Below, one piece after another: positions 1,351-64,000 of a DNA stretch of 64,000 bases. Below the pieces are notes generated by a model. It made no database searches. It was not told the origin of the DNA and was given only the letters and a program-made list of their open reading frames with translations. Made by a program: the position numbers and the translations under genes. Every line of letters starts with the position of its first letter. The first letter of the stretch is position 1. The stretch lies in contig JAJDXD010000096.1 of NCBI GenBank assembly GCA_022823405.1, positions 5,943-69,942 on the forward strand, in the 5' to 3' direction. Source of the DNA: Gammaproteobacteria bacterium. GTDB lineage: Bacteria; Pseudomonadota; Gammaproteobacteria; Arenicellales; JAJDZL01.

Positions 1351-2766
1351 TTAGACGGCAGGTATTGTTTCAGCGCTGATTTGAGACATTTGAAGTGCAG
1401 TCGGTTCTGCACAGCAGTACCAGGGCTCGGACATTTGCGGTGCGTGCGGTTGTACACCCTGAGTCAGTGCTGGAGGTTGCGAACCGTTCATGCTGTGCGC
1501 TAATTTCCAGACGCCAGCAAAAATTTTCTGCCGATCAAGACCGTCTTGTTCAGCATCCATTACCCAATTCTGAATGCGCTCCTGAAGATCGTCAACCAGT
1601 GGATCTGGGTGAATCCACTTATACCCCAGCATTTGAGAGTCGAACTCACCTAGCCAGTCGGCGTGACGATGTTCAGACTCCAAAAGACGCGTTCCGTGCG
1701 GCAGCAGCAAGCGAATGCTCAGTTGAACAGGGGCAACGCAATTGACTAGCCTCAGTCGTACGATTGCTTTCAAGAGTCGCAAATAGCCTTCAATAGTGGT
1801 CCATGGTGTAAATGGGACAAAAGTGGGTAACATTGAAATTCCTAGTGATCTCAATAACTCCAGAGCCTGGTAAAAGTCTGCCTCTTCGTGGCCCTTTTCC
1901 AACTCTTCCAATACTTGATTTTCAATGGATTCGACAGCACTGGTGATAAAAAGGCAATGATTGGTCGCAAAATACTCAATGTGTTTTGCATGTGCCAGAA
2001 GGTGCTCAACCTTGATGGTTGCATCCCAGCTTGTGCCTGGAAATTCACTCTGAAATCGCTCAATTATGCGACGTGCATGTCCCGGTCCATTCAAGAAATC
2101 AGGATCACCAAAGGAGATGTGTTGTGCACCTGCCGCCATCTGTTGGCGGATGTCTTGCATCACCACGTCGATTGAAACGACTCGAAATACGCCGGCATAG
2201 ACTGGTACGATAGGGCAGTGTCGGCATAAGTGTTTGCATCCGCGGGTCGTTTCTACAAAGCCGACGGTTTTTTCACGACCGTCGGCTAACCTTAACGACG
2301 CGTACTGATCAAGCGCGGGCAAACTCGAACGGTCAGGCGTGATGAATTCCTGTTTATCCAGTGAATTTCGGGTCAGTCTAAACTCATCGGTAGGGTGTTT
2401 TTCGCGAAGTGCCTGACTGAGAGAACGCAGGTCAGATTCTGCTTCGCCACCGAAGACGTATTCACAGCCAAGCGAGCGAAAATAGGCATCATTGACCGGT
2501 GCATACAATCCATAAACACAGATGGACGCATTTGGGGCTTCCTTACTGATTTGTGGAATTATTTCGGCTGCTAGGCGTGCACCTGCATGCATGATGAGAT
2601 GTATCGCAATCAGACGCGCGTCAGCGAATCTTGACGGTTCGAAAGGCTGGTTGGCGAGATCAATACACTCTACATCAAAATCTTCCTGTTTCAGCCAGGC
2701 TGCCGGTTCAGCCAGTGCAAACGGCTGACGCCCGATTTCGTAAGGGCTGATCAGAACGACTTTCAC
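1351..2766 (-). CDS. B12-binding-domain radical SAM protein of the CUAEP/CCAEP-tail type
   Basis: 471 aa; N-terminal LISPYEIGRQP; ETTRGCKHLCRHCP (CxxxCxxC); FGDPDFLNGP; C-terminal SEPWYCCAEP tail (codons TGC TGT, no UGA). Confidence 0.85.
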   Translation of the reverse strand: MKVVLISPYEIGRQPFALAEPAAWLKQEDFDVECIDLANQPFEPSRFADARLIAIHLIMHAGARLAAEIIPQISKEAPNASICVYGLYAPVNDAYFRSLGCEYVFGGEAESDLRSLSQALREKHPTDEFRLTRNSLDKQEFITPDRSSLPALDQYASLRLADGREKTVGFVETTRGCKHLCRHCPIVPVYAGVFRVVSIDVVMQDIRQQMAAGAQHISFGDPDFLNGPGHARRIIERFQSEFPGTSWDATIKVEHLLAHAKHIEYFATNHCLFITSAVESIENQVLEELEKGHEEADFYQALELLRSLGISMLPTFVPFTPWTTIEGYLRLLKAIVRLRLVNCVAPVQLSIRLLLPHGTRLLESEHRHADWLGEFDSQMLGYKWIHPDPLVDDLQERIQNWVMDAEQDGLDRQKIFAGVWKLAHSMNGSQPPALTQGVQPHAPQMSEPWYCCAEPTALQMSQISAETIPAV

Positions 2767-59712: not shown

Positions 59713-60819
59713 GTGTCGGACTCGTCGCTGATTGAACGCTATAGGCAAGCTGTTCAAGAAGAAGGAATTGTGGCGGATCCCGGCCAGCAAAAAATTATAG
59801 AGCACCTCCAGCGCCTGCATAACCAGCTGTTGAACTCCGGTTCGATTCGACAGAGTCGAGTGTTAAAGCGATTTTTCCGACCCGACGAGGATTTGATCAA
59901 AGGAATTTACATCTGGGGAGGTGTCGGTCGCGGAAAGACTTTTCTAATGGACTTATTTTTCAGTTCTGCACCGGTTGATCTCAAATTGCGTACGCATTTC
60001 CACCGCTTCATGCAGTCAGTTCACCAAGAACTAAAAGAGTTCAGGGATACGACTGATCCCCTCGAAAAGATAGGTCGGAAGTTCTCGAAGCGTTGCAAAC
60101 TCTTGTGTCTTGATGAGTTTTTTGTCCTGGATATTGGTGATGCTGTAATACTTTCAGGTCTGCTTCGTTCGCTGCTTGAAAATGGTGTTGTGATTGTGGT
60201 TACTTCAAACACCAGCCCGGATAATCTTTACCTCGGAGGGATACAAAGAGATCGATTTATGGCCGCAATCCGGCTGATAAATTCGCAAATCGATGTGGTT
60301 CAGATCGATGACGGGACCGATTTCCGTCTACAGACACTGGCTGGGAAAAAGCTCTACTACGATTCGCTATCGCCTGAGACGGACGCAGTGTTCAAAAGTT
60401 TATTCACGGACCTGAGTGCTGGCTTGCCCGAGTACTCAAATTCACTGGAAATATTGAACCGGACTATCCAAAACGTTTGTCATTCGGACCACCTTGTCTG
60501 GTTTGAGTTTGCTGATATTTGTGATGGTCCGCGTTCTAAAGCTGACTACATTGAAATTGCCAGTCTGTATCGAACCGTGATGATCTCCAACATACCAGAA
60601 TTGAATTGGGAGTTCGAAAACCAAGCGCGCAGATTCATCGAACTGGTCGATGAGTTCTATGACCGCGGTGTACATCTGATAATCTCAGCTCATTCCTCAA
60701 TTAATTCACTTTACACGGGTAAGCGTTTGTTGAAAGAATTCGAGCGAACCACCAGCAGATTACATGAAATGCAAACTGATCGATATTTGTCGAGAGAACA
60801 TTGTGTATCAGCTGGCTAG
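59713..60819 (+). CDS. zapE: AFG1/ZapE-family ATPase
   Basis: GGVGRGKTFLMD, HFHRFM, DEFFV.DIGDA, RRFIELVDEFYD, FERTTSRL.EM. Confidence 0.92.
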   Translation: MSDSSLIERYRQAVQEEGIVADPGQQKIIEHLQRLHNQLLNSGSIRQSRVLKRFFRPDEDLIKGIYIWGGVGRGKTFLMDLFFSSAPVDLKLRTHFHRFMQSVHQELKEFRDTTDPLEKIGRKFSKRCKLLCLDEFFVLDIGDAVILSGLLRSLLENGVVIVVTSNTSPDNLYLGGIQRDRFMAAIRLINSQIDVVQIDDGTDFRLQTLAGKKLYYDSLSPETDAVFKSLFTDLSAGLPEYSNSLEILNRTIQNVCHSDHLVWFEFADICDGPRSKADYIEIASLYRTVMISNIPELNWEFENQARRFIELVDEFYDRGVHLIISAHSSINSLYTGKRLLKEFERTTSRLHEMQTDRYLSREHCVSAG

Positions 60820-60962
60820 ATGAATTGAAATATTGGTTGTTGAATTGGGATTGAAATAACCTCGCTGGACTAACTAAAGGTTTGATTTATTGTCTATAAT
60901 CGATTGATAGCGCACTCGTCGTAGGTAGGCGGACAGAGTATTTCATGAAATCAAATTAGATG

Positions 60963-60977
60963 ATATGGAATCCTCTC
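60963..60977 (+). repeat. IS left sub-terminal inverted repeat ATATGGAATCCTCTC
   Basis: Exact reverse complement of 62428-62442. Confidence 0.9.
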
Positions 60978-61033
60978 ACCCTCAAAGGTAGAATAAGGTT
61001 TATTGACAAACCAACCTGAAAGAGTGAGAGGTT

Positions 61034-62119
61034 ATGATGGAAAGTACATACGATAGCACAACGATTGGACTGGATTTGGCCAAAAATGTTTTTCACTACA
61101 CGGAGTTGAACCGGAACATGAAGATCATCCGCCAGGCGGGCATGCGCCGGTCAGAGGTGTTGAGGTTTTTCTCAGGCCTTGATGTTGACAAGGTTCGCTG
61201 TGTGGCGATGGAGGCCTGTGGTGGCGCCCATTTCTGGGGTCGGAAATTTGAGCGGATGGGATTGACGGTGAAGCTGCTGCCGCCGAGGTGGGTGAAGGCT
61301 TATGTGTTGAACAACAAGACTGATGCGAATGATTCGGTGGCGATTGCGGAAGCGGCGCAGCGGCCGAAACTGCGGGCTGTTGCGGTGAAGTCGGCTGCGC
61401 AGCAGGATCTGACGATGCTGCACGGCTGCCGCAGACAGGCGATCAAGACCCAGACGCAGTGGCGGAATTCGATCCGCGCCCATCTGGCCGAGCGCGGGCT
61501 GGTGACCGGTCGTTCGAAAAGACGTCTGGATGAGATGATCAAAGAGGTGTTGGCAGCCGATGAACAGGCGTTATCCGAGCTGGAGATCAGCGCTGAGTTC
61601 ATCTCGACATTGGAATACGAGTGGGTTCAGCTGCAGCGGATTGCTGAGAAGGTCAGGTACTACACGGATCGGATCAATGCGGTCAGTGCCGGAATGGAAG
61701 AAGTCAGACGGCTGCAGACGATTCCGGGGTTTGGGCCGATTGTGGCCAGTGCGCTGGTGGCGGCGGTGGGCGATGGCCGGGCGTTTGGCTGCGGGCGGGA
61801 CATGGCCGCCTGGCTGGGACTGGTTCCTCGGCAGCACTCAAGTGGCGGTCATCACCGCTCTGGCGGCATCTCCAAAGCCGGAGACCGTTACGTGCGCACG
61901 ATGCTGATCCATGGTGCCAGAGCGGTGTGTCGGTCTGCGAATCTGGATCCGAAAAAGCAGGACGCGCTGCACGACAAAGCGAGACGGGTGGCAAACAGGG
62001 CCAATCAGCAAAAGGCGGTGGTGGCGGTGGCCAACCAGATGGCGAGAATTGCCTGGGCAGTGCTGTCCAGGGAAGTTGAATATGACGCCCATCATAAAGC
62101 TGGTGTGACAAAGGCATAG
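61034..62119 (+). CDS. IS110-family DEDD recombinase/transposase
   Basis: IGLDLAK (D), AMEACG (E), KTDAND (D,D), IPGFG, GLVPRQHSSGG (catalytic Ser), VAVANQMARI. Confidence 0.95.
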   Translation: MMESTYDSTTIGLDLAKNVFHYTELNRNMKIIRQAGMRRSEVLRFFSGLDVDKVRCVAMEACGGAHFWGRKFERMGLTVKLLPPRWVKAYVLNNKTDANDSVAIAEAAQRPKLRAVAVKSAAQQDLTMLHGCRRQAIKTQTQWRNSIRAHLAERGLVTGRSKRRLDEMIKEVLAADEQALSELEISAEFISTLEYEWVQLQRIAEKVRYYTDRINAVSAGMEEVRRLQTIPGFGPIVASALVAAVGDGRAFGCGRDMAAWLGLVPRQHSSGGHHRSGGISKAGDRYVRTMLIHGARAVCRSANLDPKKQDALHDKARRVANRANQQKAVVAVANQMARIAWAVLSREVEYDAHHKAGVTKA

Positions 62120-62427
62120 ACAGAACGGCTGACAGAATGTGAACCATCGCTGTGCGAGATGGACTGGCGCAGCGGATGGTGAAATGGTTTACCTTTCGAG
62201 GGAGATTGCTTTGGTGAGATTGTGAACTGATGACGAAAAGGGCGATGCCTGCACAGGAAGAACCTGGAAGTTCCTACGGCTGCATGCAAGCCGAAAATTA
62301 GATAAGGGTCCTGTGTGCGAAGATCATCACGGCTCGGGGACAGGTAAACAAGTCCCCCTTTAGACGAAGCCGAATATAAGACTGCAACCCGGCTTGTTCA
62401 TTGACTCACAGTTTTAACTTGCAATCA
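62120..62427 (+). ncRNA. Putative bridge/seek RNA region of the IS1111-type element
   Basis: Non-coding right end with hairpins (GGGGAC..GTCCCC) and short matches to the element's flanks and ends; RNA boundaries unknown. Confidence 0.65.
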
Positions 62428-62442
62428 GAGAGGATTCCATAT
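62428..62442 (+). repeat. IS right sub-terminal inverted repeat GAGAGGATTCCATAT
   Basis: Exact reverse complement of 60963-60977. Confidence 0.9.
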
Positions 62443-62475
62443 AAGGGGACTAAGTCATGACTAGGGAGAGCTCAG

Positions 62476-64000
62476 ATGTTTAAACGAATTCTTGCATTAC
62501 TGTTTTTATCGCTGTTGTCATTATCAAATGTTGCGCAGTCAAAAGATACATTGGTAATTGGCGTCACCCAGTTCCCTTCAACATTTCACCCCGGCATTGA
62601 TTCGATGTTGGCCAAGTACTACGTTTTGAATCTCACCATGCGGCCATTTACTGCCTATGATGCAAATTGGAATCTCATCTGCATGCTGTGCACAGAGTTG
62701 CCGACCATAGAAAACGGCGGTGCAGTGGAGACCGATCTTGGAGAAGGAAAAGTAGGTGTCGCAATCACCTACACAATTCAGCCTCAAGCGCGATGGGGTG
62801 ATGGGACCCCAATCACTACAAAAGACGTTGAATATACAATCGAAATTGGGAAGCATCCACAAAGCGGCATTGTTGGAGCTGAATTCTATCGACGGGTGCT
62901 GTCTGTCGACATCATCGATGACAAAACATTTACCCTGAATATGGACCGACTGGACTACAAATACAACGAACTTGATCTGTATTTGGTTCCAGAGCATATT
63001 GATCGCCCCGCATTTGCTGAGCCGGAAGAGTATCGCCATCGTAATACACACGACACAGATACCTACAATCCTGGACTGTACTTTGGGCCTTACCGAATTA
63101 TTAATGTAGAACCTGGTTCGCATGTTGAGTATGCGAGAAATGAAACATGGTGGGGACGTCAGCCATACTTTGACAAGATTGTGATACGAACAATTGAAAA
63201 TACTGCTGCTTTGGAGGCGAATCTTCTGTCAAATTCCATTGATCACATGTCTGGTACGCTTGGAATCACACTTGACCAGGCTCTGACGATGGAAAAGAGA
63301 CATGGTGCAACCTTTAATTTTCATTACCAACCTGGTCTGATTTACGAACATATCGATCTTAACCAGGATAACCCAATTCTTGCTGATGTGAGAGTGCGGC
63401 AGGCGTTGATTCACTCAATCGACCGGCATGCAATCAGCGAACAGTTGTTTGAAGGAAAGCAACCCGTCGCCGATTCATTCGTTAATCCGCTGGATTCGAT
63501 TTATGACACAACCATTCCAAAGTATTCCTATAACCCAGGTCTGGCTCGAGATCTATTGGAAGAATCCGGATGGAGCGAAGTTATCGATGGCATTCGCCAC
63601 AATGAGAGTGGAGAGCCCTTGACGCTGGAAATTGGGACGACTGCTGGGTCGCGGATCAGAGAGACTGTACAGCAGGTTTTGCAGGCTCAGTGGCGGGAAG
63701 TTGGCATTGATATCAAAATTCGAAATGAGCCGGCGCGCGTGTATTTTGGCGAAACTGTTGGGAAACGTCAATTTTCTGGTATGGCCATGTATGCGTGGAT
63801 CAGTGATCCTGAAAGTTCGCCGCGAGGTACTCTACATTCGACTGAAATACCGACCGCCGAGAACAACTGGCAGGGAAGCAACTATCCTGGATATCGAAGT
63901 GAACAGATGGATGCTTTGATTGATAAGGTTGAAGTTACTTTGGACAAAGCAGAGCGGCAGGAATTGTGGTCAAATATTCAACACCTATATGCGACAGACT
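62476..64000 (+). CDS. Peptide/nickel ABC substrate-binding protein, family 5 (partial, runs off the window)
   Basis: Absent from the ORF track because no stop lies in the window. GGGAG RBS; MFKRILALLFLSLL signal peptide; ARWGDGTPITTKDV, GPYR, DVRVRQAL..SIDR. Confidence 0.9.
   Translation, partial: MFKRILALLFLSLLSLSNVAQSKDTLVIGVTQFPSTFHPGIDSMLAKYYVLNLTMRPFTAYDANWNLICMLCTELPTIENGGAVETDLGEGKVGVAITYTIQPQARWGDGTPITTKDVEYTIEIGKHPQSGIVGAEFYRRVLSVDIIDDKTFTLNMDRLDYKYNELDLYLVPEHIDRPAFAEPEEYRHRNTHDTDTYNPGLYFGPYRIINVEPGSHVEYARNETWWGRQPYFDKIVIRTIENTAALEANLLSNSIDHMSGTLGITLDQALTMEKRHGATFNFHYQPGLIYEHIDLNQDNPILADVRVRQALIHSIDRHAISEQLFEGKQPVADSFVNPLDSIYDTTIPKYSYNPGLARDLLEESGWSEVIDGIRHNESGEPLTLEIGTTAGSRIRETVQQVLQAQWREVGIDIKIRNEPARVYFGETVGKRQFSGMAMYAWISDPESSPRGTLHSTEIPTAENNWQGSNYPGYRSEQMDALIDKVEVTLDKAERQELWSNIQHLYATD

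Follow-up and report, generated by a model that had tools for sequence, protein, structure and literature searches.

The 64,000-nt stretch of DNA analysed here, referred to below as the window, contains an IS1111-type insertion sequence that comprises 60960–62443 plus one AG core, 1486 bp in all (1484 bp without the core; Table 1). The insertion is intergenic: on one side lies zapE (59713–60819; NF040713, E = 5e-121) and on the other a gene for a peptide/nickel-type ABC substrate-binding protein (62476–63999). It lies 31 nt upstream of the start codon of the ABC substrate-binding protein gene and may therefore affect the promoter of that gene.

Most of the element is taken up by a single ORF (61034–62119), the product of which matches the DEDD RuvC-like N-terminal domain (PF01548, E = 4.4e-16) and the Transposase_20 C-terminal domain (PF02371, E = 1.1e-25) of Pfam and scores 289.4 bits with the NCBIfam model NF033542 (cutoff 140), named “IS110 family RNA-guided transposase”. 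Residues 198–354, in the C-terminal part, align to the solved recombinases ISCro4 (E = 1.1e-10) and IS621 (E = 4.1e-9; Tnp domain). The motif residues D14, E60, D97, and D100 are present, as is the GL-P----S(T)G motif, in the form GLVPRQHSSG; its S270 aligns with the region of the ESG serine of ISCro4 and is probably the catalytic serine. The subterminal inverted repeats, ATATGGAATCCTCTC on the left and GAGAGGATTCCATAT on the right, are 15 nt long, within the 7–17 bp range of the IS1111 group. The non-coding stretch downstream of the transposase gene measures 324 nt (62120–62443) versus 74 nt upstream (60960–61033). Insertion is site-specific and oriented, and the only duplication is that of the shared 2-nt core, as seen from the empty allele and from the half-sites that are kept across 36 insertion events. 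These features match those that define the IS1111 group in Siddiquee et al. (PMC11187229) and Durrant et al. (PMC11208160). The window element is thus an intact new member of a known group, and its mechanism is not new. A reading of the window made before any comparison, referred to below as the sequence-only reading, had proposed an intact IS1111-type element, which the domain matches (PF01548, PF02371, and NF033542) bear out.

Table 1. Features of the IS1111-type insertion sequence and its target, in window positions.
Feature	Position	Strand	Basis
IS1111-type insertion sequence proper	60960–62443	+	Ends fixed by empty allele
Transposase/recombinase gene, 361 aa	61034–62119	+	Pfam, NCBIfam, structure alignment, motif residues
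Left target half-site (LT) AAATT	60953–60957	+	Identical to 62295–62299
Core dinucleotide AG, left copy	60958–60959	+	Empty allele X2; same geometry in L041 versus G000:C131; TG core in L077 versus L100/L101
Left subterminal inverted repeat, 15 nt	60963–60977	+	Reverse complement of 62428–62442; 3 nt inside the end
Predicted bridge/seek RNA domain, 161 nt	62243–62403	+	Closed by helix P0 (62243–47/62399–62403); consensus fold, pair counts
Target-binding loop module	62251–62316	+	P1 62251–57/62310–16; P1b CCT 62263–65/AGG 62305–07; P2 hairpin 62277–81/62289–93; 11 × 11 nt internal loop
Top-strand (right) target guide 5'-GAAGTTC-CT-A, antisense to T-AG-RT	62267–62276	+	Reverse complement covaries with right flanks
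Bottom-strand (left) target guide: AAATT (LT), AG (core), AT	62295–62303	+	Flank covariation
AAGGG, conserved 3' strand of P1b, no right-flank guide	62304–62308	+	Pairs with CCT 62263–65
Donor-binding loop module	62317–62385	+	P3 62317–19/62383–85; P4 62330–34/62368–72; inner hairpin 62336–41/62352–57; 10 × 10 nt internal loop
Donor guide for IS left end, antisense to G + ATGATAT (60959–60966)	62321–62328	+	Contains ATCATC
Donor guide for IS right end and core, ATATA-AG	62374–62380	+	Identical to 62439–62445
Predicted junction-promoter -35, TTGCAA	62419–62424	+	-10 TAAGAT (TA + AG + AT) across circle junction (62419–62443 with 60960–60961), 17-nt spacer
Right subterminal inverted repeat, 15 nt	62428–62442	+	1 nt inside the end fixed by empty allele
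Core dinucleotide AG, right copy	62444–62445	+	Empty allele X2
Right target half-site (RT) GGGACTA	62446–62452	+	Continuous in empty allele

The assembly that holds the window contains one full copy of the element, a 3' relic (C70), and a 5' relic (C18); with one full copy, the target cannot be derived within this genome. Related copies were collected by a DNA search of 61 related genomes, which gave matches in 25, the window's own included, and in 21 of the 30 genomes of the same genus. Forty regions were fetched, in which a profile located 44 copies of the 3' non-coding region, 42 of them with a recognisable right tip and 27 of these also with a left end. For the analysis of covariation, one of the 42 right-tip copies was dropped (it lacks the 5' loop strand) and duplicates were merged, leaving 36 distinct insertion events in the same genus, 22 of which have a mapped left end. 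Five copies in one genome (L050–L054 in G005) have identical or near-identical flanks, which makes them probably part of a larger repeated unit and possibly not independent insertions; they were merged to two events. A further locus search over the genome contigs yielded 10 loci, most of them distant or already among those collected, and added little. When metagenomes were scanned for the left guide and the conserved sequence on either side of it, one truncated relic turned up (L105); it has the same left guide but, lacking a left end, says nothing about the left flank.

Incomplete forms occur in several genomes. The C70 relic (G000; L002 1501–1769, minus strand) is a solo 3' non-coding region, approximately 70% identical to that of the window, with no adjoining transposase gene. 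It ends in CCATATCAC, and the same relic stands at the orthologous site in G029 (L083), where the right flanks are 90.7% identical. C18 (G000; L003 about 1511–1615, minus strand) is what remains of the left end of a related element; it is 73% identical over 121 nt and includes the beginning of the transposase gene in degraded form. In three two-ended derivatives, L068 (G028, 588 bp), L082 (G010, 682 bp), and L048 (G028, 1314 bp), the RNA region is retained while all or part of the transposase gene is missing; the donor guide of L068 and L048 is changed (ATCTA), and their flanks fit their guides poorly.

Because all copies in one genome have TAGAT at the left and ATAAG at the right, comparing them with one another does not locate the boundary between element and target. 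The boundary follows from three kinds of uninterrupted site. The window locus itself is filled in run X1 and empty in run X2, with identical flanks, in two samples of one study. In the X2 contig, 60957 is followed directly by 62444; the skip is 1486 nt long and ambiguous by 2 nt, and the 258 and 257 flanking bases are free of differences. The contig reads CAAATT-AG-GGGAC (CAAATTAGGGGAC), with GGGACTA continuous with CAAATTAG, which means that the insertion site never had GATAA; a more diverged contig in run X4 gives a skip of 1487 nt. The orthologous sites in five relatives read TCAA(CAA/AAA/GTA)GGGGACAAA (..AGGGGACAAA) and likewise lack GATAA. An insertion in G027 (L041) reads ..ACAAGTT[AG]ATGATATGG....CCATATA[AG]AATCGAG, and its uninterrupted orthologue in the window's own genome (C131) reads ..ACAGGTTAGAATTGAC. 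In the sister clade, the interrupted site L077 (G023) reads ..GAAAAG[TG]ATGAGATGG....CCATATA[TG]TTTTATGAG, and the intact repeat copies L100 and L101 read ..GAAAAGTGTTTTATGAG. The L077 insertion sits in another multicopy repeat, found at 13 places in G023 and 11 in G025 (L099–L101; G023, G025, and G026).

Together, these sites establish the limits of the element, the empty site, and the core, which is AG for the window element and TG for the sister clade, and neither AT nor TA; the target of the window insertion is CAAATT-AG-GGGACT. An AAG after the core, considered as a conserved target sequence, was rejected, since the empty sites give A as the last base of the element and AG as the core. 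When all flanks were compared with the window's own genome by BLAST, L041 versus C131 was the one usable empty site, and the junction of the L035 locus in C23 was too diverged to be read as one. For L018, whose left flank was searched against the genus, no uninterrupted orthologue was found.

Sequencing depth in run X1 is approximately 31–34 over the element and 11–14 over its flanks, a difference of about 2.5–3 times. In contigs of runs X1–X3, other flanks branch off at 60953 (with AAATTAG preserved), at 60956, and at 62445–62446. The depth and the branching flanks indicate that other copies exist, and the contigs suggest recent movement of the element. In a variant from run X3, 17 nt that duplicate part of the right inverted repeat are inserted after 62426.

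Aligned with those of its relatives, the non-coding region shows two short blocks that differ between lineages amid constant surroundings, and these blocks correspond to the flanks. The sense block (62295–99) equals the five bases left of the core, AAATT in the window and TTTAT in G012, and matches the flank at five of five positions in 16 of the 22 events with a mapped left end. Within the single genome G027, the sense guide and the flank are both AAGTT in one sub-lineage and both AATTT in the other, and the right guides match as well; in the TG clade, the sense blocks are TAACT, GTAAT, TAAAG, TTGAT, GAACC, and TAAAC. The AT at 62302–03 equals the first 2 nt of the left end of the element, an extension that is kept in both clades. 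After the antisense block (62267–73) come CT, or CA in the TG clade, and then a single base; the reverse complement of this stretch reads LT(-1), core, and RT, with readouts such as AAGTGA for L049, TTTTAT for L077, and AATTTA for L045. Position -1 of this guide also covaries (T, C, or G). The two guide matches overlap in the target over LT(-1) and the core, 3 nt in total, and the antisense guide (62267–76) lies 5' of the sense guide (62295–62303). The same order and overlap, with the top-strand match 5' of the bottom-strand match, are given for IS1111 seekRNAs by Siddiquee et al. (PMC11187229).

Guide–flank covariation was established by permutation. Watson–Crick matches over 7 nt averaged 3.64 for a guide with its own right half-site and 1.88 with those of other events (36 events), and the corresponding values for the left half-site were 4.5 and 2.06 (22 events). 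None of 20,000 permutations reached the observed sums, nor did any when each distinct guide was represented once (26 and 12 events), a count that overstates significance because the copies are related rather than independent. Contiguous pairing with wobbles allowed was 3.11 for the right half-site, compared with 0.87 after shuffling (36 events), and 4.32 compared with 1.47 for the left; again 0 of 20,000 shuffles were as high. Misfits to their own guides are L035 (score 0–1), the defective L068 and L048 (0–2), and several solo relics (0–2). L035 (G012:C1:2303782–2306062) is a variant copy with flanks unlike its own guides, and its left half-site, AAATT, equals the left guide of the window.

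The donor loop is built on the same plan. Its guide for the left end of the element matches at six of seven positions in the window and at six or seven of seven in all 10 distinct combinations of guide and end. For the right-end guide, nine of the 10 combinations match at seven of seven positions; this guide tracks the core (AAG or ATG), being ATATATG in the TG-core clade. The donor ends vary little, so that covariation of the donor guides rests on few independent changes. Between the sister clades the core has switched (AG or TG), and of the four loop strands, three carry the compensating change. The exception is the antisense donor strand, which in the AG clade still has CA facing the AG core, so that core position 1 is an A–A mismatch.

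The secondary structure of the predicted RNA domain is supported by a consensus fold (alifold) of the aligned non-coding regions and by pair counts on a specified structure. Helix 1 is paired in 87.5% of cases, with three pairs changed on both sides, and helix 2 in 97%, with the P2 pair 51/66 going from CG to UA in eight rows; helices 5 and 6, in the donor module, are paired in 95.8% and 89.2%. These helices are conserved: over the whole structure, 89.0% of the cells are paired, compared with 29.7–40.8% when partners are slid by 1–3 columns, pair counts that favour the specified structure because it was drawn partly from the same sequences. Changes on both sides occur in seven pairs, and the covariation score is 0.201 versus 0.156 for shuffled data, with 0 of 500 shuffles reaching the observed value. 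The length of 161 nt falls within the 145–170 nt quoted for the long seekRNA in PMC11187229.

Folding of the region, which the sequence-only reading had put forward as a check, gave a divided result. The minimum free-energy (MFE) fold of 62243–62403 alone recovers the helices of the target module, whereas the donor module is absent from this single-sequence fold. The folding energy is unexceptional, with z = -0.95 for 161 nt (34 of 200 shuffles fold as well) and z = +0.44 for 215 nt. The 215-nt single-sequence fold has a different long-range structure that is unsupported and was set aside. A search of Rfam over 60800–62600 gave no matches at E ≤ 1, meaning that no curated model reached threshold.

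The sequence-only reading had located two sets of matches between the non-coding end and the junctions, and from these it had proposed two alternative crossovers. All of its strings are where it had placed them. According to its first proposal, the 14-mer AAATTAGATAAGGG (62295–62308) is a contiguous sense copy of an empty site AAATTAG-AT-AAGGG, with AAATTAGAT at the left junction (60953–60961) and ATAAGGG at the right (62441–62447) joined through a shared AT at which crossover takes place. The 14-mer is indeed present, and AT occurs at both junctions, but the proposed match to an empty site fails on the X2 contig, which shows the 1486-nt skip described above, and on the five orthologous sites, all of which lack GATAA. 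Moreover, the guide of relatives keeps GATAAGGAG, whereas in their right flanks the base after AAG is C, T, or A. The AAGG that comes after GAT is conserved in every clade, including the TG-core clade (AAGG or TAGG), where the right junction is ATATATG. In the window, the 9-mer AAATTAGAT has three occurrences where 0.59 would be expected, a number reached in 1 of 100 shuffles; ATAAGGG also has three, but 4.23 would be expected and 77 of 100 shuffles attain that number. Only the left half of the 14-mer is therefore unusual. The apparent match to the right junction consists of A (the last base of the element), AG (the core), and two chance G's, and we regard an AT crossover as extremely unlikely. 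As a guide, the 14-mer holds for its first nine bases (AAATT, AG, and AT), while AAGGG is a conserved stem strand; the crossover looked convincing, though wrong, since a target match was imitated by conserved sequences of the stem and the ends. The second proposal took TA as the core and CAAATTAAGGGG as the target, from ATCATC (62323–62328), the reverse complement of GATGAT (60959–60964), and ATATA (62374–62378, and again at 62439–62443), which flank a GGGGAC/GTCCCC hairpin (62336–41/62352–57). Both strings match the tips of the element, and as donor matches they are real and extendable (to the antisense 62321–28 and from ATATA to ATATAAG). A TA core predicts, however, a different skip length and the empty site TTAAGG, where TTAGGGG is observed, and the empty sites for L041 and L077 put the duplicated dinucleotide directly 5' of ATGA; its probability is close to nil. 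The empty allele and the other copies, by which the core was to be fixed (X2, L041, and L077), thus give AG or TG, and AT, TA, and both targets proposed with them are wrong.

The covariation with the flanks also bears on whether an RNA guide is involved at all. In favour of a reading in which the matches are only conserved end or protein-binding sequences, with the protein picking the site, are the unexceptional folding energy and the conservation of TAGAT and ATAAG whatever the site. Against this, the loop positions change with the flanks across lineages and even within one genome (G027, AAGTT versus AATTT), the loop-side helices keep pairing through compensatory changes, and other IS1111 members are RNA-guided, as shown experimentally (PMC11187229); guidance by protein alone is very unlikely here. 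A reading that we take more seriously, at somewhat less than an even chance, accepts the two-loop architecture and supposes that the right guide of the window does not specify the present site, the element having landed by its left guide, core, and a short wobble pairing, or its guide having changed later, or an RNA having acted in trans. The right guide, read as its reverse complement GAACTTC, agrees with the flank GGGACTA at two of seven Watson–Crick positions; it pairs with T, AG, and G and then through two rU–dG wobbles before mismatches set in, giving three contiguous positions past the core. Other copies exist (X1 depth, and flanks branching at 60953 and 60956), and L035 in G012 is likewise unfit to its own guides. 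On the other hand, five insertions in G012 also need wobbles to reach 4–6 contiguous pairs, and a short pairing that tolerates wobbles may be usual for this lineage.

Considering all of the above, it is highly probable that the whole explanation is an intact IS1111-group element with a two-loop bridge (seek) RNA, the guides of Table 1, an AG core, and a promoter on the excised circle. The 3' non-coding region would encode an RNA of approximately 161 nt (62243–62403) which, judging from sequence comparison, would be made, be bound by the recombinase, and direct the reaction. In the target loop, the antisense guide on the 5' strand (62267–76) would pair with the top strand of T-AG-RT, and the sense guide on the 3' strand (62295–62303) with the bottom strand of LT-AG and with two bases of the left end of the element. 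The donor loop would read the joined ends of the element in the same manner, through 62321–28, antisense to G-ATGATAT, and 62374–80, which equals ATATA-AG. Recombination at the AG core would then insert the element into CAAATT-AG-GGGACT and leave it flanked by AG on both sides, as it is now. Both the transposase gene and the RNA are most likely transcribed from a promoter that is assembled only on the excised circle. The arrangement of a -35 box, 17 nt, and a -10 box across the virtual junction is found in 27 of 27 two-ended elements, and a promoter scan of the linear element gave no promoter-like site on the + strand. A junction promoter has been described for ISEc11, as cited in PMC11187229, and the arrangement in the window matches it. 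No circle junction appeared among the contigs of the runs, a type of data that is unable to display one.

The sequence-only reading was therefore right in kind but mistaken about three key points: core, empty site, and right-target guide. Its claim that the 3' non-coding end matches the element's own target and donor stands, as the left-flank match and both donor matches lie in covarying loop strands. Of the readable target match, the left guide had been seen and the antisense right-target guide (62267–62276) had been missed. The similarity of other insertion sites to the guide segments, which it had named as decisive, is found as covariation of guides and flanks (0 of 20,000 permutations). 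The specificity was not readable from one copy: relatives and empty sites were needed, and the right guide of the window fits its own flank poorly.

The core of IS621 is CT, as against AG in the window element, and the inverted repeats of the window element are long, unlike those of IS621. The IS621 bridge RNA (Durrant et al., PMC11208160; structures 8WT6–8WT9) resembles the predicted RNA in having two internal loops, one for the target and the other for the joined ends of the element, with one strand per DNA strand and a shared 2-nt core. It differs in that the RNA of the window element lies in the right end rather than the left and in that the strand order of each loop is reversed. The donor loop of the window element is a simple 10 × 10 internal loop, in contrast to the multi-loop donor sites noted by Durrant et al. 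for many IS1111 orthologues. As in the handshake guides of IS621 (PMC13626964), the left target guide continues beyond the core for 2 nt of donor sequence (AT, 62302–03), and this AT may have a handshake-like function. The handshake dinucleotides of IS621 pair with top strands, whereas the extension in the window element belongs to the loop strand whose partner is the bottom strand; its counterpart in the donor loop, the AC that follows the core, has no match to the variable right flanks.

Among the closest parallels are the seekRNA-bearing IS1111 members ISEc11, ISPa11, and ISKpn4 (PMC11187229), which share with the window element a DEDD transposase, the GL-P----SG motif, subterminal inverted repeats, and a downstream non-coding region, together with the order of the guides, overlapping matches, a span of 145–170 nt, and a circle-junction promoter (predicted for the window element). 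At 361 aa, the transposase is slightly above the 330–350 aa quoted there for the group. The target (AAATT-AG-...) differs from those of the three elements, and the donor loop of the window was read by comparison only. The element can also be likened to ISPpu9 of Pseudomonas putida, an IS110-family element with a small-RNA gene (Ssr9) downstream of the transposase gene and with solo copies of the RNA gene, which resemble the solo relics and transposase-less derivatives among the relatives of the window element; host, sequence, and target differ, the target of ISPpu9 being REP sequences (as described in PMC12288879).

RNA-guided IS110/IS1111 recombinases are under development for genome editing, and the IS1111 branch is far less characterised than IS621. 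The window locus provides a fully resolved natural example, with the ends, the core, an empty allele of the same locus, and both target and both donor guides, and the relatives add a series in which guides and sites change together. It also gives a caution, namely that comparing the non-coding end of a single copy with its own junctions can produce a convincing but wrong crossover. Tentatively, and with the odds rather against it, the lineage, which comes from sponge-associated and marine bacteria, may represent natural reprogramming of a bridge recombinase at every layer, through guide swaps, a core switch, an extension into the donor, and wobbles. The fixed 2-nt extension of the bottom-strand guide could be a handshake on the strand opposite to that used by IS621. 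If routine rU–dG and rG–dT wobbles in recognition of the right half-site are real, they would widen the range of usable sites. If these features are functional rules and not tolerated defects, the design rules of IS1111-type recombinases would be unlike those of IS621.
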